DNA of 44,578 bases. Source: a phage. The first letter of the stretch is position 1, and every line of letters starts with the position of its first letter. The notes beneath the pieces are model-generated. The model ran no database searches, was not told the DNA's origin, and saw nothing but the letters and a program-made list of their open reading frames with translations. Below are positions 3,412 to 41,353 of the stretch, piece by piece. A program made the translations under genes and the position numbers. The stretch lies in NCBI GenBank assembly GCA_026776125.1, contig GCA_026776125.1_4343.1; one strand, 5' to 3'.

Positions 3412-5969
3412 TCCTGCACTACACGCGAAACGCTGAAGGCGCTTTCGACCGTACAAAACACGTCGGGATGCCGATAGATTTTGTCGTTAACCATATTCCT
3501 GACGGCGTGCCTGTGCGCGTCTATCTCGGTGAGATTGGCGATGATACTGATGTTACAGACGACTTCAATGCGCTCAAAGACGAGGACGCCGTGTACCACA
3601 TTATCGAGGGTGCAGGCGGTGGTATCGGCGACGCTATCGGTAGTGTATTCAGTTTCATCCTTAAGCCAATTGCCAAATTGTTCGGGCTAGACACAGCAGC
3701 TAACGCTAATTATTCCGCTACCAACAATCAGGCTACGTCGCCTAACAACAGTCTTACTGACCGCTCGAACAAGCCACGTCCTTATGAACGTTCTTATGAC
3801 ATCTGCGGGACAGTGCAGACTATACCCAATGACCTGATGCAGACGTATAAGGTGTTTAACGCCACGGGGGCGCTTATTGAATATGCGTACTATGACGCCG
3901 GTCGAGGGTATCTGCATATTGAGGAAGACGGTGTAACTGAGGCAGATACCCGAATCAGCGAGATAACTGGCTCGTCGGCGGCGGTGTATTCCCCTTACAC
4001 TTCGCCGAATAACACCAGCACACCACAATTGCATATCGGCGGCCCTATAGACCAGAAATTGTACGTTACATTTAAAAACGCCGATGTCGATGGCGCTGTT
4101 CTTCCCGCCCCTAATGATATCGCTATAGACGTGCAGGACTACACTGTCCAGCGGCAGGGAACAACCGGCGTTGTAGTAGGCGATGACGCTGGTTTCGATG
4201 AGTTTTTGGCGGTCGGGGACCTGGCATACTTCGATAACGTATATGCAGATACAACCCCAGGGTCTTTGGGTAATGAGGTTAACCTGGACGGGAGGTACAC
4301 GGTTCTTTCTGTTAGTGAAACGACCCTTATTGTGGACGTCAGTACAAATCAATCAATATGGAACCAGCTAGGAACATCTGTATGGTTTATAGGTGAAGAG
4401 GGCAACCATCTTATAGGCCCGGCGGATACTTACGCGGCTTCCCTCTCTGGATGGGCGTACATCACCCGTGGAACCGTCGACCGTGTTGTAGCCAATGTGG
4501 CTGCCAGCAACGGCATGTACAAATACAACGGCGACTATAACCGCGCTTCAGTGACAGTCGAACTGCAATACCAGATGGTAGATGAATTGAAACAGCCTGT
4601 AGGTGACATATTTACCGTACGAGGAACCGTAACAGGCCGGAACACGGATTACACAGGGATTACTCTTTACGGAAGTTTACCAACTGCTTCCAGATTCCGC
4701 GCCCGTATGCGTCGTGTTTCGGACACCGATAAAGATTTTGAAGGTACTGTTAGCGACGAGGTTACTTTCACTAATCTATATGGGCAGTCGCTGGACACAA
4801 CCCCCCACTACGGCAACCGTACTACCGTACACTGCGCCCGTAAACAAACCCCACGTGCAGCCGAGGTGTCCGAACCGGAACTGCGCATGATTGCAACCGA
4901 GATGTGCTACAAATACTTAGGTAACGGCGTATTCGATACGGTAATGACACCGAACACTCAGGCCGTGCAGTCGCTAATCAGGCTGGCGCGCGACCCGGCG
5001 GTGGGTAATCTGGAGCTGACAACAGCAAACATGGACAAGTTACTTGCGGTGCAGGAAGAGATTGAGTCATATTTTGGCAGTGAATTAGCCGGGCAGTTCT
5101 GCTACACATTCGACGACTACGACACAACCATGCAAGACATCGTTCAGACCATCGCGGAAGCCGTGTTTTGTACGGCATACCGTAAAGGTGCTGATATTAT
5201 GCTGCGATTCGACCGTCCTGTTGCGGGGCCTGAGATGGTTTTCACCCACCGCAGCAAAACGACCGGTACGGAGAAATGGACGCGCACGTTCAACGATTCG
5301 ACAACCTACGATAGCCTGTCGTTCTCGTACATTGACCCGGATACAAACGTACAGGAGACGATTTATATCCCGGAAGAACTCGGCGCGAACACCGAGGAGT
5401 ACGAATCGAAGGGTGTACGTAACTATCAGCAAGCGTACTGGCTGGCGTGGCGTCGCTACCAGCGCAACACGTTAAGTAAAGTTGTCGTAGAGTTCGAAGC
5501 TACCGAAGAAGGCGCTCTCGCTACTCCCGGCGGCGTAATCAGTGTGGTTAAAGGCTCGCGTATCGCGCCGCAGGATGGTTATGTTGTTGCCGTCAATGGC
5601 CTTACGCTGACGCTGTCTCAGCCTGTTACGTTTACTCCTGGTGATGACCATTCCATCATTCTTAAGAAGCGCGACGGCTCTGTGCAGAGTATTTCTGTTA
5701 TCAAAGGAAGCCACGACCGCGAAGTGATTATGCTCTCCGCGCCGGAGGAGGCAATCTACACGGGGAATAGTGCGCTAAAAACTGAGTTTTCATTCGGCAA
5801 CGAAGCAAGGCATAATGCTCAGAAGATAGTTGTTTCTTCAATCGACCCCAGCGACGACCGCACGGTCAAGATTACGGGCTACAACTATGATGACGGATTC
5901 TATAAATACGACGGCGTCGCGCCATACGGCAGCGGTTTCTCCGACGGATTCAGCAATGGTTTTAATTAA
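3402..5969 (+). CDS. Putative tail tip / central tail fibre protein
   Basis: 855-aa ORF (TTG at 3402; an internal ATG about 60 nt downstream is an alternative start); large S/T/G-rich structural-looking protein. Confidence 0.35.
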   Translation: MAIILHYTRNAEGAFDRTKHVGMPIDFVVNHIPDGVPVRVYLGEIGDDTDVTDDFNALKDEDAVYHIIEGAGGGIGDAIGSVFSFILKPIAKLFGLDTAANANYSATNNQATSPNNSLTDRSNKPRPYERSYDICGTVQTIPNDLMQTYKVFNATGALIEYAYYDAGRGYLHIEEDGVTEADTRISEITGSSAAVYSPYTSPNNTSTPQLHIGGPIDQKLYVTFKNADVDGAVLPAPNDIAIDVQDYTVQRQGTTGVVVGDDAGFDEFLAVGDLAYFDNVYADTTPGSLGNEVNLDGRYTVLSVSETTLIVDVSTNQSIWNQLGTSVWFIGEEGNHLIGPADTYAASLSGWAYITRGTVDRVVANVAASNGMYKYNGDYNRASVTVELQYQMVDELKQPVGDIFTVRGTVTGRNTDYTGITLYGSLPTASRFRARMRRVSDTDKDFEGTVSDEVTFTNLYGQSLDTTPHYGNRTTVHCARKQTPRAAEVSEPELRMIATEMCYKYLGNGVFDTVMTPNTQAVQSLIRLARDPAVGNLELTTANMDKLLAVQEEIESYFGSELAGQFCYTFDDYDTTMQDIVQTIAEAVFCTAYRKGADIMLRFDRPVAGPEMVFTHRSKTTGTEKWTRTFNDSTTYDSLSFSYIDPDTNVQETIYIPEELGANTEEYESKGVRNYQQAYWLAWRRYQRNTLSKVVVEFEATEEGALATPGGVISVVKGSRIAPQDGYVVAVNGLTLTLSQPVTFTPGDDHSIILKKRDGSVQSISVIKGSHDREVIMLSAPEEAIYTGNSALKTEFSFGNEARHNAQKIVVSSIDPSDDRTVKITGYNYDDGFYKYDGVAPYGSGFSDGFSNGFN

Positions 5970-5981
5970 AGAGGACTCTAT

Positions 5982-20108: not shown

Positions 20109-20342
20109 TTATTCCAGGTCTTCTAAAGTGGCTGTCACCCCACGAACTTCGGCAACAGCACTATATCTCCCGCCAACATTTTTCACGACACCAGATTTAA
20201 CCAGCACCTTCAACGACCCTTCAATGATGGCGGAACTATAGTACCTAAAATAACTGCGGCGCAAGTCCATAACGCTGCACGACCCTTTTTTACGTGTTAC
20301 CGAAACAACCGCCGTAAATACGCGTGACTGGAACTCGGTCAT
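20109..20342 (-). CDS. Hypothetical protein (77 aa)
   Basis: ORF with ATGA overlap to upstream HTH gene. Confidence 0.4.
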   Translation of the reverse strand: MTEFQSRVFTAVVSVTRKKGSCSVMDLRRSYFRYYSSAIIEGSLKVLVKSGVVKNVGGRYSAVAEVRGVTATLEDLE

Positions 20343-20533
20343 TTTACATTCTCCTTAATCCACGCTTCTACTTTCTCCGGGTCGAACGTACCAGGCTGCC
20401 GGCGGCCCATAATACGGATACAACAATCCGGGAACTTCCCACTCTTTAACCAGTTATTCAGCGTGCGACGAGTAACCCCGATACGCTCAGCTACCTCATT
20501 CTGTGTCATTCTCAAACCCTCATTATCAGTCAA
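20339..20533 (-). CDS. Small HTH DNA-binding protein
   Basis: VAERIGVTRRTLNNWLKSGKFP HTH-like segment; first gene of leftward operon. Confidence 0.5.
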   Translation of the reverse strand: MTDNEGLRMTQNEVAERIGVTRRTLNNWLKSGKFPDCCIRIMGRRQPGTFDPEKVEAWIKENVK

Positions 20534-20857
20534 CGAAACTTAGTATACATTGCGAATAATGGGAAATCAAACATAATCGCACCTATTGACATTATGAAAA
20601 TCTTCGTTTAAGGTGCTTTTGTATCTTAGTTACTTTGATTCCTGTTCACCTTGTAAAACCGCTTAAAACGCAGCTGCGCGCAGCGCAAGCAAAGTGTTAA
20701 GCGAAAGTTTACTGAACATAAGAATTATCGTAACTTTCCTTCCTAAGTATCTCCGGTTGCCCTGGGCAAGCTCTATTCTCATCGGCAGCATATCTCTTAA
20801 GTATCTGATTTTCTTAATGTGCCGTAGATTCGCAACCGTAAAAATGTAACGATTATT

Positions 20858-20883
20858 GGGCAGGCTTAAGCCTGCCCTTTAGT
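20858..20883. terminator. Perfect 10-bp-stem hairpin (gggcaggctt/aagcctgccc) in divergent intergenic region
   Basis: Palindrome read in sequence; weak T-run after it. Confidence 0.4.
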
Positions 20884-20949
20884 TACCAAGTAATAAGAAT
20901 AAAGGCACAACCCTCCCCGAAGAATCACAACGGCAACGTAACTATTCTC

Positions 20950-20978
20950 TTGCACACCCCAACATAATAGGTTACTAT
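20950..20978 (+). promoter_or_regulatory. Promoter-like element, class II (TTGCAC-N17-TACTAT)
   Basis: Shared with 21751(+), 32092(-), 41325(-); followed by conserved leader CGAAACGAGA and RBS before 21013. Confidence 0.45.
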
Positions 20979-21012
20979 TCACTTATCGAAACGAGACATA
21001 AGGAATTTAGAA

Positions 21013-23008: not shown

Positions 23009-23317
23009 TTGGATAAATTTACTGAAACAGTGACGGGGTGGCTTCTGGCAGCCGCACTAGCTGGTGGGGTAATAGGCTTACGGCAACATAAGTCCGCTAT
23101 TTCCGGCCCTATCGACGGATTCTGCTTTATTGCAACTGGCTTCGCTTGCGCCGTATTTGGCGCGCCTCTTGCCGCTCAATGGTTCGGTATTACCGGAGAG
23201 CGCGAGATAGCTGGCCTCGGATTCATCATCGCAATTCTCTGGATGCCCATCTATTCCCGTCTCTCCGGTATCGTCGCCGGAGAATACATCGCACGTCGAG
23301 GAGGCACAGATGAATGA
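23009..23317 (+). CDS. Putative holin (membrane protein)
   Basis: Multiple hydrophobic helices and charged C-terminus; immediately upstream of lysozyme gene. Confidence 0.5.
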   Translation: MDKFTETVTGWLLAAALAGGVIGLRQHKSAISGPIDGFCFIATGFACAVFGAPLAAQWFGITGEREIAGLGFIIAILWMPIYSRLSGIVAGEYIARRGGTDE

Positions 23318-23582
23318 GTTATTCTGGTTCTGCGGTATGCTGGCAATCGGAGGCACATCGCTGTTTAATGTGTATCATCCCAGCGTTGACGACGGGCTAT
23401 TTGGCCGGGTGCTCTATATCCTGACAGCTATTGTCTGCGCCGCCGGATGTATCCACCTGTTACAGGGCAGCATGTCACCTACGCTGCCTGAGACATTAAT
23501 CACTTTAGTTGCGCTGCGCCAGATTCGTCAGGCGTGGCTGTCGTACGGAGGACATAAGCGTGTCTCGAAACATTTCAGATAA
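23310..23582 (+). CDS. Membrane protein, possible second holin/antiholin
   Basis: Two hydrophobic segments; overlaps holin end and lysozyme start. Confidence 0.35.
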   Translation: MNELFWFCGMLAIGGTSLFNVYHPSVDDGLFGRVLYILTAIVCAAGCIHLLQGSMSPTLPETLITLVALRQIRQAWLSYGGHKRVSKHFR

Positions 23583-24048
23583 TGGCATCAAATTCACCGC
23601 CGCGTTCGAGGGATTCCGCGGAACCGCGTATCGCGCTACACCGAACGAGAAGTACCTGACTATCGGGTACGGTCACTACGGGCCGGACGTTAAGGCGGGG
23701 CAAACAATCACGCCGGGACAAGGCCTCCTGTTACTTAATCGCGATATGGCTAAAGCCGTAGCTGCGGTTGATGCGGCAGCACACCATTCACTGACACAGG
23801 CACAGTTCGACGCAGTGTGCGACCTGGTGTATAACGCGGGTGCCGGTGTGATTGCCGCTACCACGGGCACAGGTAAGGCGCTGCGTTCTGGTGACATCGC
23901 GACGCTGCGGGCTAAGCTGGCGCTGTTCATCAACCAGAACGGCAAACCGTTACTAGGCCTGCGTCGTCGTACCGCCGGTCGTCTGGCGCTGTTCGACGGT
24001 AAACCGTGGCAAGAGGCTGAGGCTATTGGGCGCGCGGTGAAAGGTTGA
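23560..24048 (+). CDS. Endolysin, T4/P22-type lysozyme (glycoside hydrolase family 24)
   Basis: FEGFRGTAYRATPNE...LTIGYGHYG...FDAVCDLVYNAGAG signature; GTG at 23560 preferred start within ORF-track entry 23509..24048. Confidence 0.8.
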   Translation: MSRNISDNGIKFTAAFEGFRGTAYRATPNEKYLTIGYGHYGPDVKAGQTITPGQGLLLLNRDMAKAVAAVDAAAHHSLTQAQFDAVCDLVYNAGAGVIAATTGTGKALRSGDIATLRAKLALFINQNGKPLLGLRRRTAGRLALFDGKPWQEAEAIGRAVKG

Positions 24049-26132: not shown

Positions 26133-26226
26133 GTACATCCCGCCCAATACCCTTATATAATCCATTTAGACGCGTAGGGCGCGTCTGGTGCGCTCTGATG
26201 GTCAGACGCATATGCAAGGGGATTCT

Positions 26227-26772
26227 ATGAAGCTGAAACTCAAGCAGCCATCGCCAGAGGTGGTGCAAGCTGCACATGAAGAAGCTGTTAGCGCAAACCG
26301 TCGCCGTAGACGACCGCGCGGCAAACAGAGCCTTTATCAATCATCCCGTAATTCCGCCGCGTTGTGGGACCCGGACTATTGCGACGCTTTAATCGAGTTC
26401 TTCGACCGCACGTCATGGGAGCTTGTGCCTACGTCTAAGGGTGACGAACGCCCGCTGATTCAGGATAAACCACCGTCACTGGCCCGCTTCGCCTTACACA
26501 TCGGAGTCACTATCCCGATTATTAAGCTTTGGCTGCGTGAGATTCCCGCATTTGCAGAAGCCTATGAAACGGCGCAGGCGCTGGAAGAGGCGTACTTCAC
26601 CGAGACAGGGGCTGCGGGCATCTCGGCTACGTTTGCCGCGGCTAAACTGGGCCTCAGCAAAGAGAAACCGGTTGCATCCACCGAAGAACCAGCACCGACT
26701 GAGATTGTTTTCAGTGTTGCGGAGCCTGTAGGTAAAATCGTAACAACGAACATGGGTGAGGTGGAGGAATGA
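26227..26772 (+). CDS. Putative terminase small subunit
   Basis: Immediately upstream of and coupled to terminase large subunit; basic N-terminal region; ATG at 26227 with RBS AAGGGGA. Confidence 0.45.
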   Translation: MKLKLKQPSPEVVQAAHEEAVSANRRRRRPRGKQSLYQSSRNSAALWDPDYCDALIEFFDRTSWELVPTSKGDERPLIQDKPPSLARFALHIGVTIPIIKLWLREIPAFAEAYETAQALEEAYFTETGAAGISATFAAAKLGLSKEKPVASTEEPAPTEIVFSVAEPVGKIVTTNMGEVEE

Positions 26773-28019
26773 GTATTCAGCTATCCGCACCACAGGCACT
26801 GTTCCTGAATTGCGATAACAAATACAAGGCCTATGTCGGAGGCTTCGGTAGCGGCAAGACATTTGTCGGCTGTCTCGACCTGCTTACGTTCATGCTCCGG
26901 AACCCGGGTACCCGCCTGGGCTACTTCGGCCCCACCTACCCGGCTATCCGCGACATCTTCTACCCGACATTCGAGGAAGCGGCTAACCTCCTCGGCCTCG
27001 ATGTGCTGGTTAAATCTGGCGACAAAGAAGTCGTGGTCACTCGCGGTAAGACGGTGCTCGGAACTGTTATCTGCCGCTCGATGGATAACCCCGGCTCGAT
27101 AGTCGGCTTCAAAATCGCGGCTGCGGTCGTGGATGAGCTGGACGTATTGAGCCGTGAGAAAGCCGAGCTGGCGTGGAACAAAATCGTAGCCCGCATGCGT
27201 CTGGTTATCCCGGGGGTAATTAACCACATCTCCGTCACCACGACTCCGGAAGGGTTCAAGTTCGTTTACGCCAAGTTCAAGGAGAACCCGACGCCGAGTT
27301 ACTCAATGGTGCAGGCGTCCACTCACGAGAACGCCAGATTCCTGCCGCCGGATTACATTAGCTCGCTGACTGAGACTTACCCGGCGCAACTGATTAACGC
27401 GTATCTGAACGGTGAGTTTGTCAACCTGACATCCGGAAGCGTGTATTACGCATACGACCGACGCAAGCACCGCAGCAAAGAGACAATTCAACCGGGCGAC
27501 ACGCTGTACATCGGGCAGGACTTCAACGTTACGAAGAACGCCAGCGCCGTGTATGTGCAGCGTAAAGATGGATGGCACGCGGTTGCCGAACTGAAGGGCC
27601 TGTTCGATACGCCGGACACCGTGCGCGTAATTACCGAGAAGTGGAAGTCACAAGGCCACCGCATCGTCGTTTACCCCGACGCTAGCGGCAAGAACCGTAA
27701 GACAAACTCGGCGTCAATCTCTGATATTGCATTACTCCAGCAGGCGGGTTTCGATGTTCGCGCTAAATCAGCCAACCCCCCGGTTAAAGACCGCGTTTTA
27801 GCCGTGAACACCGCGCTGGAAAAAGGTAAGCTGTGGGTTAATGACCACTTATGTCCTGAGATAGCCAAGACGCTGGAACAGCAGGCATACGACGATAACG
27901 GAGAGCCGGCTAAAGACGGCGTCATTGACCATATGGCTGATGCTCTCGGCTATCCTGTAGTTTATGAGATGCCGGTGGTTAAACCAGTAATCAACATCCC
28001 GGTGACTTTCGCACTTTAA
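26769..28019 (+). CDS. Terminase large subunit
   Basis: Walker A YVGGFGSGKT near N-terminus; size and position before portal. Confidence 0.8.
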   Translation: MSIQLSAPQALFLNCDNKYKAYVGGFGSGKTFVGCLDLLTFMLRNPGTRLGYFGPTYPAIRDIFYPTFEEAANLLGLDVLVKSGDKEVVVTRGKTVLGTVICRSMDNPGSIVGFKIAAAVVDELDVLSREKAELAWNKIVARMRLVIPGVINHISVTTTPEGFKFVYAKFKENPTPSYSMVQASTHENARFLPPDYISSLTETYPAQLINAYLNGEFVNLTSGSVYYAYDRRKHRSKETIQPGDTLYIGQDFNVTKNASAVYVQRKDGWHAVAELKGLFDTPDTVRVITEKWKSQGHRIVVYPDASGKNRKTNSASISDIALLQQAGFDVRAKSANPPVKDRVLAVNTALEKGKLWVNDHLCPEIAKTLEQQAYDDNGEPAKDGVIDHMADALGYPVVYEMPVVKPVINIPVTFAL

Positions 28020-28031
28020 GAGGATTATTAA

Positions 28032-29501
28032 ATGTTAACTATGAACGGTCAGAATCAGGGTGTTAAGACAAAACACCGGGAATGGCTGCATCACTTCGAT
28101 AAATGGCAGAAGGTACGCCACGCGCTGGAAGGCGACCTTATTCGCTATCTGCGCAACGTCGGGAAGAACGAACCTGACCCGACCTACGCAGCCCAGCGCC
28201 AGGAAGAATACGAGAACGGTGCTATCTGTTACAACTTCACTAAACGTACCCTGGCGGGGATGACGGGGTCAGTGATGCGCAAAGACCCTGAGCAGATTAT
28301 CCCGCCTGAACTTGAGTACCTGTTGCACAACGCTGACGGTTCGGGTGTAGGGCTGTGGCAGCACGCGCAGGATACGTTAATGGAGATTGACTCGGTGGGT
28401 CGTGGCGGGTTGCTGGTGGACGCCCCGGAGACAGCCGCGGCAACGGCAGCCGAACAGAACGCGGGGTTACTAAACCCGGTCATTGCATTCTACACTGCTG
28501 AGAACATCATCAACTGGCGACTGACCCGCATCGGCTCAGTGAACCGTGTGACGATGGTTGTATTGCGTGAGGCATGGGAATACTCGGAACCAGGCGCTGA
28601 GTTTGAAACAAAATTCGGCGAGCAATACCGCGTCCTTGACCTGATTGACGGTCGCTACCGCCAGCGCATCTACCGCTTCGATGCCGAAGGTGGCGCACAG
28701 GATGAAGTAATCGAAATCTTCCCGGAACTCGGCGAACAGTTGCGCGGTAAAATCCCGTTCACGTTCATTGGCGCAAGCAACAACGACGCCACTATAGACG
28801 ATGCGCCTTTACTGCCGTTAGCTGAGCTAAATATAGGACACTTCAGAAATTCGGCCGATGTGGAAGAGGCCAGCTTTATAGTAGGTCAACCGACACTGTT
28901 CATTGCCCCCGGCGAGAACATGAGCATGGAGCAGTGGAAAGAAGCCAACCCACACGGCATACGCATGGGGTCGCGTTCAGGCCACAACATCGGCTCCGGC
29001 GGAAATGCGTTTCTGGTTCAGGCGGCGGAAACTAACCTCGCCAAACAGAATATGCTGGATAAAGAGAATCAGGCCATCCAGATTGGCGCGCAGCTTATCA
29101 CCCCGACGCAGCAAATCACCGCGGAATCGGCCCGCCTGCAACGCGGCGCCGACACGTCAGTCATGGCAACAATAGCACGTAATGTAAGCATGGCGTATAC
29201 CGATGCGTTGCGCTGGGTTGCGGGTATGCTTGGGCTTAGTGAAGATACTGAGATTGAATTCAAGCTGAACATGGAGTTCTTCCTGCAACCGATGACAGCT
29301 CAGGACCGCGCTCAGTGGATGGCGGACATTAACGCAGGCCTGCTACCAGCTACTGCTTACTACGCCGCGTTGCGTAAGGCTGGCGTAACCGACTGGACCG
29401 ATGAAGACATTCAGAACGCTATTGGGGACGCACCGCTGCCGTTGGGTGCGGTTGCTCAGGTAGCAGGAGAAATTCCGCAGTCCTCGCAACAACAGGAGTA
29501 A
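28032..29501 (+). CDS. Portal protein
   Basis: 489-aa ORF directly after terminase large subunit; synteny and size. Confidence 0.65.
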   Translation: MLTMNGQNQGVKTKHREWLHHFDKWQKVRHALEGDLIRYLRNVGKNEPDPTYAAQRQEEYENGAICYNFTKRTLAGMTGSVMRKDPEQIIPPELEYLLHNADGSGVGLWQHAQDTLMEIDSVGRGGLLVDAPETAAATAAEQNAGLLNPVIAFYTAENIINWRLTRIGSVNRVTMVVLREAWEYSEPGAEFETKFGEQYRVLDLIDGRYRQRIYRFDAEGGAQDEVIEIFPELGEQLRGKIPFTFIGASNNDATIDDAPLLPLAELNIGHFRNSADVEEASFIVGQPTLFIAPGENMSMEQWKEANPHGIRMGSRSGHNIGSGGNAFLVQAAETNLAKQNMLDKENQAIQIGAQLITPTQQITAESARLQRGADTSVMATIARNVSMAYTDALRWVAGMLGLSEDTEIEFKLNMEFFLQPMTAQDRAQWMADINAGLLPATAYYAALRKAGVTDWTDEDIQNAIGDAPLPLGAVAQVAGEIPQSSQQQE

Positions 29502-29506
29502 ATAGA

Positions 29507-29532
29507 AAGGCCCCGCTAGGGGCCTTAGTTTT
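29507..29532. terminator. Bidirectional hairpin terminator (aaggcccc-gcta-ggggcctt)
   Basis: 8-bp stem between convergent genes (portal + and 29531..30184 -). Confidence 0.6.
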
Positions 29533-30326: not shown

Positions 30327-31370
30327 ATGAGCTTACTGACATCACTAATCAGCCACCAGATTTGGCTGCAACGCACCGCATCTGGTGAAGTGAAAGACCT
30401 AGCACCGTTCATTCAGGAGATGCGGGACGAAATAAAACGTCAGGTGCTGTTATTCGGTGACGACGGGCGAAGCACTGCCCGACTGAATAAATTGTTACGC
30501 GACCTTGAAGAAGCACTGGTGGGGCTTACGGGCGACTGGCAGACAAAGCTGACAGAAGACCTTAAGGAACTGGCGGCGTATGAGGCTGAGTGGAACGTAA
30601 AGACACTGACCGCCAACGTAGACGCGGAATTTGTTACGCCTACCGCTGAGCAGGTATGGGCCGCTGCCGAGTTTCAACCATTATCATTGAGCGACAAGCC
30701 CGTTGATTTCACCAAGCTGATGTCTGGATGGGGTGAAACGGAAGTAGCACGTCTTGTAACTGGAGTTAAGATGGGCTTTGTGCAAGGTCAAACCACACGG
30801 CAGATTGTTAAGAATGTTGTTGGCGCTGGTGGACTAGCCGACATCTCAGAACGTAACGCGACTACGGTAATCCGCACCGCGCTGTCCCACGTATCCAACG
30901 AGGCCCGTAACGAGACGTACCGCCAGAACGACGACATCATCGAGAAATATGAGTGGGTGTCAACTTTGGACAGCCGTACCAGCACGATTTGCAGGGCCAG
31001 AGACGGAATGACGTGGGAAATCGGTAAAGGTCCGATGCCACCAGCCCATCCTAATTGCCGAAGTACCACTGCACCGGTAATCAGTTCAGAGTTCGACTTC
31101 CTTGATAAAGGCGCAAAACGTGCGGCTAAGGGTGCGGACGGCGGTACTCAGGTAAGCGCAGACACCACCTATTACGAGTTCCTGAAACAACAACCAGCAT
31201 GGTTTCAGGACCAGGCGCTCGGTCCTGTTCGTGGTAAGATTTTCCGTAACAGCGGTATATCGCCGGAAGAGTTTCGCGTAAAATCTGTAGATGGTTTCGG
31301 GAATCCGCTTACGCTTAAGCAGATGGCGGAACTCGATAAACGTGTTGCTGATTATCTGAAAGGGGATTAA
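30327..31370 (+). CDS. Putative head morphogenesis / minor head protein
   Basis: 347-aa ORF following portal; assignment by synteny. Confidence 0.4.
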   Translation: MSLLTSLISHQIWLQRTASGEVKDLAPFIQEMRDEIKRQVLLFGDDGRSTARLNKLLRDLEEALVGLTGDWQTKLTEDLKELAAYEAEWNVKTLTANVDAEFVTPTAEQVWAAAEFQPLSLSDKPVDFTKLMSGWGETEVARLVTGVKMGFVQGQTTRQIVKNVVGAGGLADISERNATTVIRTALSHVSNEARNETYRQNDDIIEKYEWVSTLDSRTSTICRARDGMTWEIGKGPMPPAHPNCRSTTAPVISSEFDFLDKGAKRAAKGADGGTQVSADTTYYEFLKQQPAWFQDQALGPVRGKIFRNSGISPEEFRVKSVDGFGNPLTLKQMAELDKRVADYLKGD

Positions 31371-31831
31371 TGATGGGCTTTTTCAAAGTAACTGATGTGC
31401 CGTCACGTCGCGTAGTCCAGTACGCTCGGGTGTCTGGCTCCGGTGAGAACGTAACCTACGTTGAGGATGAAAGTGTACTAGGTACACCTGTAGACGAGAT
31501 GCCGTGCGCAGACAAGACAGGTATCGCACTCTCTGCCGCTGGTATGCTTTATGAAATTCCGTATCTGGCGGACGCTGGTGACGTGTATCTCTCTGCGCAA
31601 CCGCAGGACGCTGAACTGGCGGGCGGCAGCGCAACCATCACTGTCGAGGTTAAGGCAGGCAAAGCGCCGTATTCTTCGACCTGGTACAAAGACGGTAAGG
31701 AAGTGGTGAATGTGCCTGAGGAGTCTCTGTCTCTGACGGTTAATGCGGTCGGCGAATACTTCGTTAAAGTTACTGATGCCGATGGAGTAGAGGCGGTAAG
31801 CAAAGCGGCGAAGGTTACTAAGCCAGAATGA
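31370..31831 (+). CDS. Ig-like domain protein (possible head decoration/accessory)
   Basis: C-terminal region (ATITVEVKAGKAPYSSTWYKDGKEV...GEYFVKVTDADG) parallels Ig-like domain of 34833..35174. Confidence 0.4.
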   Translation: MMGFFKVTDVPSRRVVQYARVSGSGENVTYVEDESVLGTPVDEMPCADKTGIALSAAGMLYEIPYLADAGDVYLSAQPQDAELAGGSATITVEVKAGKAPYSSTWYKDGKEVVNVPEESLSLTVNAVGEYFVKVTDADGVEAVSKAAKVTKPE

Positions 31832-31834
31832 TAA

Positions 31835-31862
31835 AAGGCCCCATTATGGGGCCTTAGTTTTC
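31835..31862. terminator. Bidirectional hairpin terminator (aaggcccca-tta-tggggcctt)
   Basis: 9-bp stem between convergent genes. Confidence 0.55.
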
Positions 31863-32064
31863 AACGGAATCTTGTGTTTAAATCCTGCTCATGGACAACC
31901 CTCAGAACAGTGTCATAATCCCCGTATCTTCCAGGTTCAAATATATCTAATGCCTTGTAAGCAGACATTGCGTCAGGGAAAACCTGCAGAACCTTTTTAA
32001 CCCGGCACAAGTCACCGTCGAACTCTTCATCGAACTCTTGAACTACTTCGCAAATTGCATACAT
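31861..32064 (-). CDS. Hypothetical acidic protein (67 aa), opposite-strand insert
   Basis: ORF with RBS AGGAGG, driven by class II promoter element at 32092. Confidence 0.45.
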   Translation of the reverse strand: MYAICEVVQEFDEEFDGDLCRVKKVLQVFPDAMSAYKALDIFEPGRYGDYDTVLRVVHEQDLNTRFR

Positions 32065-32091
32065 TTTTCACCTCCTGTTTAAGTTAACTGA

Positions 32092-32120
32092 ATAGTACCC
32101 TATTATATTGGGGTGTGCAA
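32092..32120 (-). promoter_or_regulatory. Promoter-like element, class II (TTGCAC-N17-TACTAT on minus strand)
   Basis: Near-identical to 41325(-) and 20950(+). Confidence 0.5.
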
Positions 32121-32395
32121 ACTATTTATTTACGTATTCCAGTTATTCCTCCGAATTGTAAATGTTGGAATAAACTATTCGAATAGTTGACTTTTCACTA
32201 AAAATATGATAAGCTCCACCTGAGCTTGTGAAGTATGAACAAGCGACCGCGGCGCGGGCAGGTAACGGAGCGGGACGTAAGTCCTGAGTGTAGTTACGCT
32301 GACGCGTTCGGAAGGGCCATACTCTATTGCTTGTGTAAAAAGTAACTGGTTTACTGAGATTACGCCGTTTCTATGTTTAAATGATAAGGACTAGC

Positions 32396-32418
32396 GCCCC
32401 GCTTTATGGCGGGGCTTT
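32396..32418 (+). terminator. Rho-independent terminator (gccccgc-tttatg-gcggggc + TTT)
   Basis: 7-bp GC stem plus T-run, 20 nt before Rz start. Confidence 0.5.
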
Positions 32419-32439
32419 ACTTATCGAGAAAGGGGAAAC

Positions 32440-32826
32440 ATGAATCTTAAAGCAACTGTCGTAGCAGGAGCATGTTTCATCATCCTGGTTTACGCACACG
32501 GCATCTACCAGTATCGCAGCGGATGGAACGAAGGCCGGGCTAATCTCGTTTCGCAGCAACAGCAGAAAGCACAGACTGAGTTAGCGAAGAAAACACAACG
32601 GCAGCAGCAGGATGAATCGAAGGCCGCCGCCGCTGACAACGAAGGCAAGACGAAATCAGAGGTGATTATCCGTGAAGTCGTTAAGTACATTAAAACGCCT
32701 GGTCGCAGCGTGTGCACTTTTGACGATGCTCGCGTCCTGCTCAAGTCCCGCGCCGTCGCCAACGCCAATTCCATCCCCGGATACGACGATGATGCAGCCG
32801 CCGTGCAAGCTGGCGCCACCAAGTAG
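32440..32826 (+). CDS. i-spanin (Rz-like)
   Basis: N-terminal transmembrane segment (ATVVAGACFIILVYAHGIY) followed by Q/K/E-rich predicted coiled coil. Confidence 0.6.
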   Translation: MNLKATVVAGACFIILVYAHGIYQYRSGWNEGRANLVSQQQQKAQTELAKKTQRQQQDESKAAAADNEGKTKSEVIIREVVKYIKTPGRSVCTFDDARVLLKSRAVANANSIPGYDDDAAAVQAGATK

Positions 32827-32935
32827 TGACGCGGACGAGGATTTAGCTATCGACGTTCAGAACGCCGAATGCGTACGGCAACTGAGACTGAAAGTGTTCA
32901 TGTTGCAGGATTACGTGAGGAATATTCTGGAATAG
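32672..32935 (+). CDS. o-spanin (Rz1-like lipoprotein) overlapping Rz in +1 frame
   Basis: Signal peptide with lipobox LASC, proline-rich mature region (SPAPSPTPIPSPDT); starts inside Rz and extends past it. Confidence 0.6.
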   Translation: MKSLSTLKRLVAACALLTMLASCSSPAPSPTPIPSPDTTMMQPPCKLAPPSSDADEDLAIDVQNAECVRQLRLKVFMLQDYVRNILE

Positions 32936-33017
32936 TTGCCTTGCATGTTGGAATAATTTATTCTTGACATGTAAATCCGGGTGGCCCGGATTCCAACGTC
33001 CAGGGGACATACTGACT

Positions 33018-33719
33018 ATGAATCGTTTTTTACGTTATCCGTTCCAGGAAGAAGCTGGAGCAGAAGATAAAGCTGGTGGCGGTGACGCTCCTAAAATGTT
33101 CACCGCTGAAGAAGTTCAGGCGCTGATTGAGAAAGAAGTTGCCGGGCTTAAGGCCAATCAGGAAGCATTGCTGGCGGAGAAGAAAGAAGCCGCCCGTAAA
33201 GCAAAAGAGGCCGAAGAAGAACGGCAGCGCGCGCACCAGGAGGCGTTAAAAGCCGCTGGTAAGATGGATGAGTTCGAAAAGACGATTCGTAGCCAGTATG
33301 ACCCGGTGTTAGCCGAGAAAGACGGTCGCATCTCCAGAATGGCAGAGCGTATCCTCGGCAGCGAACGTAAAGCGGTGCTAGGCTCTTTCGCGGGTGACTT
33401 TATTACCCCAGAAGCAGTGGACATTCTTGCGCCGTTCGTTAAGACTGAGTTCGAAGGCGATGATGTGGTTACTAAGTTTGTTGGTGCAGACGGTAACGTA
33501 ATCACGACTGACCCGGAACAGTTCCGCAAATACCTGCGCGAACACAAGGCGTTTTCGCATTTGATCAAAGCAAATGCAGCTTCCGGCGGCGGGGCTTCCG
33601 GTAGCAAAGGCGGCGGGGCCGCACCAGCGTTTAAAGACATGAGTGAAGCAGAGCGTTTAGCCCTGTATAAATCGAACCCTGCCGAATTTGAACGGCAACT
33701 TAAAGCCCTGAGGAAATAA
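33018..33719 (+). CDS. Putative scaffolding protein
   Basis: Charged, alanine-rich coiled-coil-like sequence directly upstream of major capsid gene; ATG at 33018 preferred over ORF-track start 32964. Confidence 0.55.
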   Translation: MNRFLRYPFQEEAGAEDKAGGGDAPKMFTAEEVQALIEKEVAGLKANQEALLAEKKEAARKAKEAEEERQRAHQEALKAAGKMDEFEKTIRSQYDPVLAEKDGRISRMAERILGSERKAVLGSFAGDFITPEAVDILAPFVKTEFEGDDVVTKFVGADGNVITTDPEQFRKYLREHKAFSHLIKANAASGGGASGSKGGGAAPAFKDMSEAERLALYKSNPAEFERQLKALRK

Positions 33720-33721
33720 TA

Positions 33722-34771
33722 ATGGCAATTACCACTATCGGCGATATCGTAACTGGCAACATCCCGGTCCTGGCGTCTTATATGACCGAGGACCCGGTAG
33801 AAAAAACCGCGTTCTTCCAGTCTGGTATTCTCACCCCGACCCCATACGCCGCCGAGATTGCCCGCGGCCCGTCCAACGTCGCTAATATTCCTTTCTGGAA
33901 AGCGATTGATACCTCTATCGAGCCGAACTACTCGAACGACGTATACCAGGACATCGCCACCCCGCGTAACGTGCAGACCGGCGAGATGATGGCGCGCGTT
34001 GCGTACCTGAACGAAGGTTTCGGTCAGGCGGATTTGACCGTTGAACTGACCAGCCAGAACCCGCTGCAATCCGTAGCGTCACGTCTGGATAACTTCTGGC
34101 AGCGTCAGGCACAACGCCGTCTGATTGCTACCGCGCTCGGGCTGTACAATGACAACGTAGCCGCTACCGACGCATACCACAAGCAGAATGACATGGTAAT
34201 CGACGTGTCTGCTACTCTGGGCTTCGATGCGGGCGCGTTCATCGACGCTACCCAGACTATGGGTGATGCGCTGATGGGCAACGGCGGTGAAGTGCTGGGG
34301 GCTATCGCGATGCATAGCTTCGTTTATGCGCAGGCACGTAAGCAGCAGCTTATCGACTTCATCCGTGACGCGGACAACAACACCATGTTCGCCACCTACC
34401 AGGGCTACCGCGTGATTGTTGACGACAGCATGACCGTAGTCAGCACTGGCCCGACCCGTAAGTTCATCTCCATCATCTTCGGCAACGGCGCTATCGGTTA
34501 CGGTGAAGGTTCTCCGTCCAACCCGCTGGAATACGAGCGCGAAGCGTCCCGCGGCAACGGCGGCGGCGTTGAAACCCTGTGGACCCGTAAGACCTGGTTG
34601 CTACATCCGTTTGGTTACAGCTTCACCAGTGCAGTAATCACTGGCAACGGCACCGAGACTACCCCGCGCTCTGCTTCCTGGCAGGACCTGGCGAACGCCT
34701 CCAACTGGAACCGTGTGGTTGACCGCAAGCACGTACCGATTGCCTTCCTGGTAACTGGTGTCGGTGCTTAA
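33722..34771 (+). CDS. Major capsid protein
   Basis: 349-aa ORF following scaffold and followed by terminator; synteny and size. Confidence 0.65.
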   Translation: MAITTIGDIVTGNIPVLASYMTEDPVEKTAFFQSGILTPTPYAAEIARGPSNVANIPFWKAIDTSIEPNYSNDVYQDIATPRNVQTGEMMARVAYLNEGFGQADLTVELTSQNPLQSVASRLDNFWQRQAQRRLIATALGLYNDNVAATDAYHKQNDMVIDVSATLGFDAGAFIDATQTMGDALMGNGGEVLGAIAMHSFVYAQARKQQLIDFIRDADNNTMFATYQGYRVIVDDSMTVVSTGPTRKFISIIFGNGAIGYGEGSPSNPLEYEREASRGNGGGVETLWTRKTWLLHPFGYSFTSAVITGNGTETTPRSASWQDLANASNWNRVVDRKHVPIAFLVTGVGA

Positions 34772-34787
34772 GGTTAAGCTATAATCG

Positions 34788-34811
34788 AGAGGGACTTCGG
34801 TCCCTCTTTTC
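34788..34811 (+). terminator. Rho-independent terminator (agagggac-ttcg-gtccctct + TTTTCATTT)
   Basis: Perfect 8-bp stem plus T-run after capsid gene. Confidence 0.65.
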
Positions 34812-41283: not shown

Positions 41284-41324
41284 GGTGTAGCTCCTGTTTG
41301 GGATAACATCGTTGGTGTAAGTGA

Positions 41325-41353
41325 ATAGTACACTATTATATTGGGGTGTGCAA
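41325..41353 (-). promoter_or_regulatory. Promoter-like element, class II (TTGCAC-N17-TACTAT on minus strand)
   Basis: Near-identical to 32092 copy; about 40 nt upstream of 41283 start. Confidence 0.5.

Follow-up and report, generated by a model that had tools for sequence, protein, structure and literature searches.

Two-component spanins are recognized by a type II membrane protein combined with a lipoprotein, the two being encoded by overlapping genes and carrying conserved periplasmic cysteines (PMC6139136). Among the described systems, the closest is the 'Jersey' family of overlapped spanins defined by Kongari et al. 2018 (BMC Bioinformatics 19:326; PMC6139136), which includes those of Jersey, SETP3, SE2, K1G, K1H, K1ind1-3, HK578, and SO-1. 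In this family, the two genes overlap by 155 bp, the i-spanin contains polyQ, and Cys45 and Cys67 of the o-spanin are constant; the spanins of FSL SP-031 were described as having a 'separated' form (PMC6139136). Known spanin genes that are unlinked from those for holin and endolysin include T4 pseT.3 and pseT.2 (PseT.3/PseT.2; PMC6139136). In the literature consulted, we found no experimental report on spanin function in the Jersey family, no comment on the position of spanin genes in Guernseyvirinae, and no comment on a small RNA at that position.

The window, i.e. the whole 44,578-nt stretch of phage DNA that was analysed, represents a Kagunavirus (Guernseyvirinae) and shows ~99% (98.9%) nucleotide identity to 590B, NTEC3, and Bas74. 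Two overlapping genes in the window very probably specify a Jersey-family two-component spanin, which would disrupt the outer membrane as the last step of lysis. The features of this pair are as follows.

32440-32826, + strand: i-spanin (Rz-like), ATG start, 128 aa; PHROG 2536 'Rz-like spanin' (E=3.7e-54)
32672-32935, + strand: o-spanin (Rz1-like) precursor, GTG start, 87 aa; PHROG 1267 and PHROG 5672
32659-32664, + strand: Shine-Dalgarno sequence (GAGGTG; GAGG at 32659-32662) of the o-spanin GTG, inside the Rz CDS, read from the sequence

Both open reading frames at 32440-32935 are present as described in the initial annotation, with Rz1 starting within Rz and ending beyond it. The overlap is 155 nt in length, and Rz1, read in the +1 frame, continues for 109 nt after the stop codon of Rz, an arrangement belonging to those found for two-component spanins (embedded, overlapping, or adjoining genes). 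Exactly the same geometry is kept in 42 of 47 related loci.

Rz contains a single N-terminal transmembrane segment, as had been noticed earlier; its strongest hydrophobic stretch comprises residues 5-23 (Kyte-Doolittle 19-residue mean, 1.85), and TMHMM is cited in the record of phage Shashou for an identical protein. The transmembrane helix is followed by a long helix with polyQ, a break (TPGRSVCT, containing Cys92), a second helix, and a disordered tail, so that the periplasmic domain is predicted to be mostly helical. In a single-sequence AlphaFold2 model of low confidence (mean pLDDT, 65), residues 3-85 and 94-107 form helices separated by a break at residues 86-93, and this break coincides with the conserved cysteine. 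The cysteine residues of Rz are Cys12 and Cys92, the latter being periplasmic.

Rz1 begins with the n-region MKSLSTLKR, followed by a hydrophobic core and the lipobox LASC with the predicted lipidation site Cys23. The lipobox and the proline-richness, both pointed out in the initial annotation, were borne out: the lipobox fits a PROSITE PS51257-like rule, and the mature protein of 65 aa contains 10 prolines. Residue +2 is Ser and not Asp, the residue for inner-membrane retention, and Rz1 thus has the signal peptidase II lipobox cysteine of an o-spanin without an Asp at +2. The mature part consists of a proline-rich linker and a conserved C-terminal domain and contains Cys45 and Cys67, which together with Cys92 of Rz provide periplasmic cysteines for predicted homotypic intermolecular disulfides. 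The GTG at 32672 is the first start codon past an in-frame stop codon (32663-32665), and relatives use the same start position, as either GTG or ATG. In the Shashou record, a ribosome-binding site is annotated at the place equivalent to the Shine-Dalgarno sequence of Rz1, and the identical gene model is described as 'o-spanin, contains N-terminal lipobox'. The signal peptide and the lipobox cysteine are kept despite sequence divergence, the corresponding motif being LLSGC or LLNGC in Jerseyvirus.

Assignment of the pair to the Jersey family rests on the similarity of both subunits as well as the 155-bp overlap and the cysteines at positions 45 and 67 of the o-spanin. It also shares with this family the lipobox, the proline-rich linker, and the helical C-terminal part of Rz1, and the N-terminal membrane helix, polyQ stretches, and two helices of the i-spanin. 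Protein identity to the K1-type members is 90-99%, and a tblastn search with Rz1 detected 92% identity in K1ind1, where the gene is annotated as 'putative spanin'. More distantly, the C-terminal domain of Rz1 is 41-50% identical to those of HK578-like Dhillonviruses, and Rz is 43% identical to a protein of the Dhillonvirus YD-2008.s (E=6e-11). One relative (L038) has the 'separated' spanin form with a different signal peptide. There is no difference of substance from the family, and the pair represents one more Kagunavirus allele. Genes at the same position are annotated as spanins in the phages with 98.9% nucleotide identity to the window, and the exact gene model is already present in GenBank in the curated Shashou record. 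The finding is thus already known, the family, the overlapped arrangement, and the location in the genome all having been published and annotated. Because the Jersey family has been catalogued and the location among head genes is common to all relatives, the pair is an ordinary one, and as a spanin locus it alters nothing in current knowledge.

Lambda Rz/Rz1 likewise consist of a type II helical inner-membrane protein and a small outer-membrane lipoprotein rich in proline, whose gene uses the +1 frame of the same DNA, with periplasmic cysteines for intermolecular disulfides. However, lambda Rz1 is wholly embedded in Rz, whereas Rz1 of the window begins within Rz and runs beyond it. The mature o-spanin of the window, with its conserved helical C-terminal domain, is longer than that of lambda (~40 aa), whereas its Rz, with one periplasmic cysteine, is shorter than lambda Rz (153 aa). 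In addition, the lambda genes directly follow S and R, from which the equivalents in the window are distant. At the sequence level, BLASTP with Rz of the window yielded no alignment to lambda Rz, and BLASTP of the two Rz1 proteins yielded only E=0.019 over 38 residues. No match to the Pfam spanin families (PF03245 and PF06085) was obtained at E<=0.1, with DUF2514 (E=0.026, below its cutoff) as the only hit, and the pair thus falls outside the sequence families of lambda Rz (PF03245) and Rz1 (PF06085).

Many database records shorten Rz1 to a form of 47 aa without a signal, and a widely used phage annotation route (via PHROG 5672) repeats this form, even in recent reference collections. If these records were right, the second gene would be only the ORF starting at ATG 32792 (MQPPCK...), encoding no lipoprotein, and the longer +1 ORF would be a by-product of the Rz sequence. 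Such a gene of 144 nt is given for Bas74_0009 and in other Pharokka-style annotations, and it agrees with PHROG 5672, a profile of 47 positions that matches residues 41-87 of Rz1 only. However, its product would have no export signal, and PHROG 1267 aligns with residues 8-86 (E=9.5e-19). The upstream part of the +1 frame is open in 42 of the 47 relatives and, though its sequence varies between genera, invariably specifies an n-region with positive charge, followed by a hydrophobic core and a lipobox cysteine. Moreover, a Shine-Dalgarno sequence precedes GTG 32672, an ATG occupies this position in some relatives, and expert curation (Shashou; Kongari 2018, PMC6139136) takes the long form.

Substitution patterns among 40 distinct relatives bear on the same point and show purifying selection in both frames. 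Among codon differences of a single base, 88% of those in the Rz1-only segment are synonymous when read as Rz1 (versus 6 and 16% for the other two frames), and 69% of those in the Rz-only segment are synonymous when read as Rz. In the overlap, the synonymous fraction is 0.60 in the Rz frame versus 0.29 in the Rz1 frame. This predominance of changes synonymous in Rz, which the short gene would also explain, indicates that selection in the overlap favours the Rz frame and that the N-terminal third of Rz1 is only loosely constrained, as expected of a signal peptide and linker. The conserved geometry and the frame-specific synonymous bias indicate that the Rz1 ORF did not arise by chance, and we regard the 47-aa gene as scarcely credible. 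The 47-aa annotations imply that current inventories of Guernseyvirinae lysis genes understate the real gene.

It is also conceivable, but very unlikely, that the products are a membrane protein and an outer-membrane lipoprotein with a role other than lysis (superinfection exclusion or receptor blocking, like Cor or Llp), carried as a moron in the head module. The distance of the pair from the holin and endolysin genes, its own promoter and leader (see below), and the lack of homology to lambda Rz would fit such a role, but unlinked spanins have a precedent in T4 (PMC6139136), and overlapping genes for a type II protein and a lipoprotein with periplasmic cysteines are the defining signature of two-component spanins (PMC6139136). 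The host is Gram-negative, and no other credible lipoprotein or spanin candidate was found within the window. Unlike variable, moron-type genes, the pair is present throughout Guernseyvirinae and Dhillonvirus with conserved synteny. The T4 spanin genes differ in being separated, non-overlapping, and of an unrelated sequence family, and T4 is a large myovirus in which all lysis genes are dispersed.

As a Jersey-family spanin, the pair would act in the manner of the lambda paradigm, on which complex formation, disulfide-linked dimers, and membrane fusion are modelled here. Rz would be anchored in the inner membrane with type II topology, its helical periplasmic domain extending toward the outer membrane, to which Rz1 would be sorted after export and lipidation at Cys23. 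The conserved C-terminal domain of Rz1 would bind Rz, so that the complex would span the periplasm. After removal of the peptidoglycan by holin and endolysin, disruption of the outer membrane by the complexes would follow, probably through membrane fusion.

The genomic surroundings of the pair include the following features.

31370-31831: Hoc-like head decoration gene, upstream of the spanin pair
33018-33719: scaffold gene, downstream of the pair
33722-34771: major capsid gene, downstream of the pair
23009-23317, + strand: holin gene of the lysis cassette
23310-23582, + strand: second holin gene of the cassette (PHROG 2359 and 2508 for the holins; Bas74 annotation)
23563-24048, + strand: endolysin gene of the cassette (endolysin PHROGs; Bas74 annotation)
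29507-29526: hairpin terminator between the lysis cassette and the spanin unit
31835-31855: GC-rich hairpin terminator between the Hoc-like gene and a minus-strand ORF, splitting the upstream head genes from the spanin unit
31861-32064, - strand: small ORF of 67 aa (PHROG 27256, E=4e-4) between the Hoc-like gene and the spanin leader
32085-32120, - strand: promoter of the minus-strand ORF, a copy of a 36-nt motif (TTGCAC-N17-TACTAT on the transcribed strand)

The location of the pair in the head module, ~8.4 kb from holin and endolysin, was confirmed, the interval between the endolysin stop codon and the Rz start codon being 8,391 nt. The cassette contains two holin genes, and the endolysin is a lysozyme (Pfam PF00959, E=2.9e-27). 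This distant position between head genes is common to Guernseyvirinae and Dhillonvirus; in the latter, the pair likewise lies between the head morphogenesis and scaffold genes. The region around the minus-strand ORF is variable among relatives, and the ORF is absent from Shashou, in which a terminator is annotated at the site equivalent to 31835-31855.

The initial annotation placed holin and lysozyme among early genes. This assignment was not supported: both share the orientation of the structural genes, lie 2.1 kb ahead of the gene for the terminase small subunit, and have small genes on either side, and in time-course RNA-seq of Kagunavirus K1B4, the lysozyme gene falls into the 'middle' class with capsid and tail genes (PMC12645636). 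The same data weaken the idea that early holin and endolysin and late spanins constitute a split temporal control of lysis functions, as does the position of the cassette, which resembles that of the lambda lysis genes ahead of the late structural genes. The idea draws on a rightward arm that starts at the divergent control region 20540-21012 and contains the lysis cassette. This arm is preceded by a strong sigma-70-like promoter motif (20950-20985), which is used also for minus-strand accessory genes, whereas the spanin promoter is of a different type, with a palindrome and a structured leader, and hairpin terminators lie between the cassette and the spanins. However, the spanin genes of Dhillonvirus abut the head morphogenesis gene and have no regulatory region of their own, early expression of holin would be hazardous, and no mechanism is apparent; split temporal control is considered unlikely, although split regulation of some kind is plausible. 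The motif is one of three copies of the 36-nt element, located at 20950-20985 (+), 32085-32120 (-), and 41318-41353 (-). A Pfam search of ten small ORFs detected no Q-type antiterminator, and the only recognizable regulator among them was an HTH_17 protein (20339-20533).

That the spanins form a separate transcription unit is plausible, because they appear to have their own promoter and the terminators at 29507-29526 and 31835-31855 separate them from the lysis cassette. The control region of this putative unit and the region following it contain the features below.

32168-32180, strand not assigned: palindrome GAATA-N3-TATTC, just upstream of the -35 element and within the direct repeat ATGTTGGAATAA...TATTC
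32187-32215, + strand: candidate sigma-70-type promoter, -35 TTGACT (32187-32192), 17-nt spacer ending in TG, -10 TAAGCT (32210-32215)
32216-32318, + strand: 5' domain of the leader (P1, P2/P3, internal loop, P4)
32319-32439, + strand: 3' part of the leader (conserved single-stranded blocks, then a long hairpin)
32936-33017, + strand: conserved Rz1-scaffold intergenic region (repeat, TTGACA, hairpin, scaffold Shine-Dalgarno sequence)

Two sites had been put forward as promoters of the pair. The one near 32162-32200 belongs to the conserved promoter, which is separated from Rz by a structured leader of ~225 nt, whereas the motif at 32945-32975 lies downstream of Rz/Rz1 and cannot express them. 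The promoter pattern T(T/A)GACT, 17 nt, TGnTA(A/C)GCT is kept in all three sequence variants, which suggests that it is functional. The spanin pair is most likely transcribed from this promoter through the leader, and the transcript probably continues into the scaffold and capsid genes that follow. The palindrome at 32168-32180 may be an operator; it overlaps a perfect 16-bp palindrome (32173-32188) and is retained in the Jersey-type variant as GAATACTTTATTC.

Conservation of the leader exceeds that of the genes next to it, and its stems show compensatory base changes. Its 5' domain comprises a hairpin (P1, 32224-32244), a long irregular stem (P2/P3, 32247-32266 with 32293-32311), and, beyond an internal loop, a tetraloop hairpin (P4, 32271-32286), and the same topology was obtained from each variant folded alone. 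The covariance model matches 47 of 47 Guernseyvirinae loci. In the covariance alignment of the 5' domain, 96% of the cells are paired and 14 of 29 pairs are changed on both sides, whereas only 28-41% are paired when the structure is slid, and none of 500 shuffles equalled the observed values. Because RNAalifold on a mixed MAFFT alignment of window and Jersey types misaligned the inner helices by 1-2 columns and lost helices, the structure is based on separate folds and the covariance-model alignment instead.

In the 3' part, the conserved single-stranded blocks CTATTGCTT, AGATTACGCCGT, and ATGTTTA are followed by an extended hairpin, which is seen in the folds of both the window and Jersey types. 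TGATAAG (32382-32388) pairs with CTTATCG (32420-32426), enclosing a GC stem (32396-32415) with compensatory changes and forming a terminator-like site, after which the U-run is poor or lacking in the Jersey type. At its base, GTTTCT (32367-32372) pairs with GGAAAC (32434-32439), located between the Shine-Dalgarno sequence and the ATG of Rz; GUUU/AAAC is replaced by GUAU/AUAC.

Three other candidates in the leader were discarded. A 36-aa ORF (32235-32345), annotated as 'hypothetical protein' in relatives, is either reduced to 9-17 aa by frameshifts or missing its ATG in 13 of 35 distinct variants. A long-range pairing between the 5' end and 32320-32334, suggested by the window-type fold, is disrupted in several variants and is not retained in the Jersey type. 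The block AAGATT, complementary to AATCTT at the Rz start, shows no co-variation in the Jersey type and was thus taken as a chance match.

Rfam 15 covariance searches gave no match at E<=1 in 31800-33100 or in three variant loci and none in the whole window at gathering thresholds. No relative of the leader was found in 5,426 complete E. coli genomes. A scan of viral contigs for the motif ACCGCGNNGCGG...CGGAAGG returned mostly chance matches, none of which fitted the covariance model; a tighter scan returned the same Guernseyvirinae contigs and chance matches, and in bacterial genomes only chance matches in unrelated taxa. The leader is an undescribed element, and Guernseyvirinae spanin genes reside behind a conserved promoter and an RNA that is more conserved than the adjacent proteins.

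Structured leaders of phage operons include the lambda pR'-6S RNA-tR' region, the put RNA of HK022, and the RNase III processing hairpins of T7 or lambda. The leader shares with this group the order of a promoter, a structured transcript of ~200 nt, and a GC-rich hairpin immediately before lysis and head genes, as well as two adjacent stem-loops near the transcription start and a long irregular stem with an asymmetric internal loop. It differs from them in having no sequence or Rfam match and no Q-like antiterminator encoded in the ten small ORFs, and the resemblance is only a lead.

The structure of the leader is well supported, a standing that does not extend to its function. The neighbouring stem-loops of the 5' domain could influence the polymerase during transcription or serve as a site for RNase III processing, and the 3' hairpin could sequester the spacer between the Shine-Dalgarno sequence and the AUG of Rz and thereby gate translation. 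We tentatively propose, at somewhat less than even chances, that the leader is a new cis-regulatory RNA of Guernseyvirinae setting the timing and amount of the spanins and possibly also of scaffold and capsid. Because Kagunaviruses are in development as phages for therapy and as chassis for synthetic biology, knowledge of the control of their late and lysis genes would be useful.

The Rz1-scaffold intergenic region contains a second copy of ATGTTGGAATAA and of GAATA-N3-TATTC (32945-32963), followed by TTGACA (32964-32969). No acceptable -10 element is present 16-18 nt from this hexamer, which makes its status as a promoter doubtful, and the Jersey type has TTGTTA. Farther downstream, AATCCGGG-TGG-CCCGGATT forms a hairpin (32974-32992), which shows compensatory changes in the Jersey type (CACCGGG/CCCGGTG).

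The 2-kb stretch around the spanin pair shares 98.9% identity with Escherichia phages 590B and NTEC3 and ~98% identity with BASEL phages Bas70-76. This stretch matched 483 phage records, mostly those of Salmonella Jerseyviruses and Escherichia Kagunaviruses, and on the basis of these matches the window belongs to Kagunavirus (subfamily Guernseyvirinae) and represents a small virulent siphovirus infecting E. coli. The genes around the pair are arranged as follows.

Gene order around the spanin pair
26188-28019, plus strand, terminase
28032-29501, plus strand, portal
30327-31370, plus strand, head morphogenesis
31370-31831, plus strand, Hoc-like decoration protein, directly before Rz/Rz1 in the order
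32440-32826, plus strand, Rz (i-spanin), 128 aa
32672-32935, plus strand, Rz1 (o-spanin), 87 aa
33018-33719, plus strand, scaffold
33722-34771, plus strand, major capsid, with connector and tail genes next

The sole strongly hydrophobic stretch of Rz comprises residues 5-23. Rz1 starts at GTG 32672, the first start codon past an in-frame stop, with GAGG nine bases upstream, and its N-terminus (MKSLSTLKRLVAACALLTMLASC) has a charged n-region followed by a hydrophobic core and then the lipobox LASC. The residue after Cys23 is Ser, which is compatible with outer-membrane sorting, and the mature protein has 65 residues, including ten prolines and two further cysteines (45 and 67). The two genes overlap by 155 nt, Rz1 being in the +1 frame and extending 109 nt beyond the Rz stop. 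The initial annotation, which described an overlapping Rz/Rz1 pair with a transmembrane stretch, a lipobox and prolines, located among head genes ~8.4 kb from holin and endolysin, was borne out by this ORF and residue analysis and by the measured distance of 8,391 nt from the endolysin stop (24048) to the Rz start. No further credible lipoprotein candidate emerged when every ORF in the window was scanned. A single-sequence AlphaFold2 model of Rz, of low confidence (pLDDT 65), contains one long helix (residues 3-85) that breaks at TPGRSVCT, where the periplasmic Cys92 lies, then a second helix (94-107) and finally a disordered tail.

Rz matched PHROG 2536 ('Rz-like spanin') with E=3.7e-54, and residues 8-86 and 41-87 of Rz1 matched PHROG 1267 and PHROG 5672, respectively. 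Kongari et al. (2018; PMC6139136) grouped 27 overlapped two-component spanin members, among them K1G, K1H, K1ind1-3 and HK578, into a 'Jersey' family. Its traits according to these authors are an overlap of 155 bp (stated for Jersey itself), an i-spanin with polyQ stretches, and an o-spanin with two helices and constant cysteines at positions 45 and 67; every one of these traits is also present in the window pair. For Kagunavirus Shashou, the curated GenBank entry lists a 387-nt i-spanin and a 264-nt o-spanin 'containing N-terminal lipobox', the latter beginning 232 nt into the former, and the window pair is identical in this respect. Judged by these family traits, the PHROG matches and the Shashou gene model, the pair is therefore a new allele of an already described family, and its identification as spanins is right, with high confidence. 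The pair is unrelated in sequence to lambda Rz/Rz1: BLASTP gave no alignment between the Rz proteins and E=0.019 between the Rz1 proteins, and Pfam spanin families did not match the pair. That it functions like lambda Rz/Rz1 we infer only by analogy; the literature surveyed contained no experimental tests of any Jersey-family spanin.

Many records, including BASEL Bas74 (Bas74_0009; 5838-5981 in locus L001), give the o-spanin as 47 aa from ATG 32792 (window 32792-32935). This model, which omits both signal peptide and lipobox, must be wrong. Because PHROG 5672 is a 47-position profile covering exactly the truncated part, Pharokka-type annotation repeats the truncated form. Kongari et al. reported that o-spanin starts are often mis-called (PMC6139136).

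The placement of spanins between head genes was universal in the relatives examined and is shared by the genus Dhillonvirus. In Dhillonvirus YD-2008.s, the order is terminase, portal, head morphogenesis, Rz, Rz1, two minus-strand ORFs, scaffold and major head protein, with the Rz gene overlapping the end of the head morphogenesis gene. In a Jerseyvirus genome paper (PMC9409062), the spanins are gp9 and gp10 and the holins/endolysin gp63-65; T4 spanin genes are likewise unlinked from holin and endolysin (PMC6139136). From these gene orders, the placement is old and stable and no peculiarity of the window genome.

Among 48 related loci taken from IMG/VR, 47 were evaluable for gene geometry, and 42 of these keep the exact Rz/Rz1 arrangement. 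Single-base codon differences were counted among 40 distinct sequences. Downstream of the Rz stop, 88% were synonymous in the Rz1 frame vs 6 and 16% in the other frames, and in the Rz-only segment 69% were synonymous in the Rz frame. Within the overlap, the synonymous fraction was 60% in the Rz frame vs 29% in the Rz1 frame, a dominance of Rz that is consistent with loose constraint on the Rz1 signal peptide and linker. Wholly different Rz1 N-termini, found in Jerseyvirus relatives and in a locus with 'separated' spanins (L038), still combine a charged n-region with a hydrophobic core and a lipobox Cys (LLSGC, LLNGC or ITGC). In L038 (IMGVR_UViG_3300045988_013393; Rz 2501-2857), Rz and Rz1 have 118 and 81 aa and overlap by just 14 nt, with a different signal peptide and the lipobox ITGC, and the window-type leader is retained with 97.7% identity; Kongari et al. 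discuss a similar case, FSL SP-031.

The holins and endolysin lie in a rightward arm beginning at the divergent control region 20540-21012, amid small ORFs with no assigned function; the terminase genes lie 2.1 kb downstream on the same strand. A 36-nt motif, TTGCAC-N17-TACTAT when read along the transcribed strand, occurs in three copies with 92-94% identity. The copy at 20950-20985 (plus strand) precedes this arm, and those at 32120-32085 and 41353-41318 (minus strand) face minus-strand accessory genes, namely the ORF 31861-32064 and a superinfection immunity and exonuclease block, respectively. Each copy sits where transcription must start, and the motif looks like a phage promoter family. 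Hairpin terminators (29507-29526 and 31835-31855) and two minus-strand genes intervene between the lysis cassette and the spanins, which are also preceded by a conserved predicted promoter; the spanins therefore probably form a separate transcription unit. The split regulation of lysis proposed in the initial annotation, which put holin and endolysin among early genes, was only partly supported: a separate unit is probable, and a different temporal class found no support. In the sole Kagunavirus time-course RNA-seq study, which used coarse sampling and does not mention spanins, the lysozyme gene is grouped with capsid and tail genes in one class (PMC12645636). The motif at 32945-32975, also put forward as a promoter of the pair, is located downstream of it and cannot serve as such.

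Across 35 of the 48 loci and some 180 GenBank phages, the 305 bp before Rz (32135-32439) show 95-99.7% identity, even in Salmonella phages with Rz only 64-73% identical (L035, L036, L038 and L049). Two further variants were found, one in L024 and one of Jersey type (L039-L048). Common to every variant are the palindrome GAATA-N3-TATTC, a -35 element T(T/A)GACT, a 17-nt spacer with TG at its end and a -10 element TA(A/C)GCT (predicted promoter elements at 32187-32215 in the window), followed by ~185-215 transcribed bases, a GC-rich hairpin and the Rz Shine-Dalgarno sequence. Copies of the direct repeat ATGTTGGAATAA(N)TATTC and of GAATA-N3-TATTC stand on both sides of the spanin cassette (32162-32193 and 32930-32969), 783 bp apart. 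GAATA-N3-TATTC, which the Jersey type retains, may bind a regulator, and a perfect 16-bp palindrome, AACTATTCGAATAGTT (32173-32188), adjoins the -35 element. No part of the region varies more than the segment from the Hoc-like gene to the leader (31740-32130), where mean pairwise identity is 0.2-0.5. This segment contains a minus-strand 67-aa ORF (31861-32064) with no assigned function and its own predicted promoter and terminator; because this ORF is absent from phage Shashou, the segment behaves like a moron slot.

When the first 103 nt of the leader (32216-32318) were folded separately for each variant, one common shape was obtained, in which a first hairpin precedes a long irregular stem; this stem has an asymmetric internal loop and ends in a tetraloop hairpin. 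A covariance model built from twelve window-type sequences matched all ten Jersey-type loci at full length (E = 3e-5 to 6e-4). In the resulting alignment, which was fitted to the model and thus favours structure, standard pairs occupied 96% of cells and both sides had changed in 14 of 29 pairs; the separate folds and a count restricted to window-type sequences agree with this structure. With partners slid by 1-3 columns, 28-41% were paired and at most three pairs had changed on both sides, and none of 500 shuffles reached the observed values. The conserved G-U pairs make the structure strand-specific, pointing to RNA rather than DNA. By this comparative evidence, the leader is a structured RNA. 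It is present in all sampled Guernseyvirinae; the model found no second copy in the window, no copy in Dhillonvirus and no match in 101 unrelated loci except one more Jerseyvirus contig, from the motif scan. No Rfam 15 family matched it, complete E. coli genomes contained no relative, and no mention was found in the literature searched. The leader is thus an undescribed, highly conserved element directly upstream of Rz.

The 3' hairpin (32382-32426) is kept with different sequences, namely TGATAAG/CTTATCG around GCCCCGC/GCGGGGC in the window and UAUACG/CGUAUA around GCCCGGC/GCCGGGC in the Jersey type. At its base, GUUU(CU) pairs with (GG)AAAC right before the Rz AUG (GUAU with AUAC in the Jersey type). 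A terminator at this position, as for a separate small RNA, is doubtful because the hairpin, followed by UUUACUUAU in the window type, is followed merely by UUAGCG in the Jersey type; a 5' untranslated leader is hence more likely. Such a leader might act on the polymerase, be processed by RNase III or gate the translation of Rz. Ten small ORFs yielded no Q-like antiterminator.

Two ORFs overlap the leader. The 36-aa ORF 32235-32345 ('hypothetical protein' in many relatives, e.g. Bas74_0007 and CPT_Shashou_007) was rejected as a gene; it lies inside the structured RNA, and its frame is not conserved, being disrupted in 13 of 35 distinct variants (frameshifted to 9-17 aa in five and missing the ATG in eight). 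A 20-codon ORF (ATG 32381 to TGA 32441-32443), which crosses the 3' hairpin and overlaps the Rz start codon as ATGA, has no Shine-Dalgarno sequence, is not conserved in the Jersey type and probably arose by chance.

The 82-bp Rz1-scaffold spacer (32936-33017) is also highly conserved, and contains a second copy of ATGTTGGAATAA and the palindrome, TTGACA, a hairpin with compensatory changes (AUCCGGG/CCCGGAU vs CACCGGG/CCCGGUG) and the scaffold Shine-Dalgarno sequence. TTGACA was rejected as a promoter, as no acceptable -10 hexamer follows it. In five relatives (L008, L015, L021, L027 and L030), the sequence past ...GGGGACATACTGA switches to another gene start (ATGAGCGAAGAAGTGAAAGACG...), suggesting a recombination junction exactly at the scaffold ribosome-binding site. 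Directly 3' of the major capsid gene, a strong terminator-like hairpin, GAGAGGGAC-TTCG-GTCCCTCTT, with a T-run (34787-34808, plus strand) was identified, and the polymerase would have to read through it to reach the connector and tail genes.
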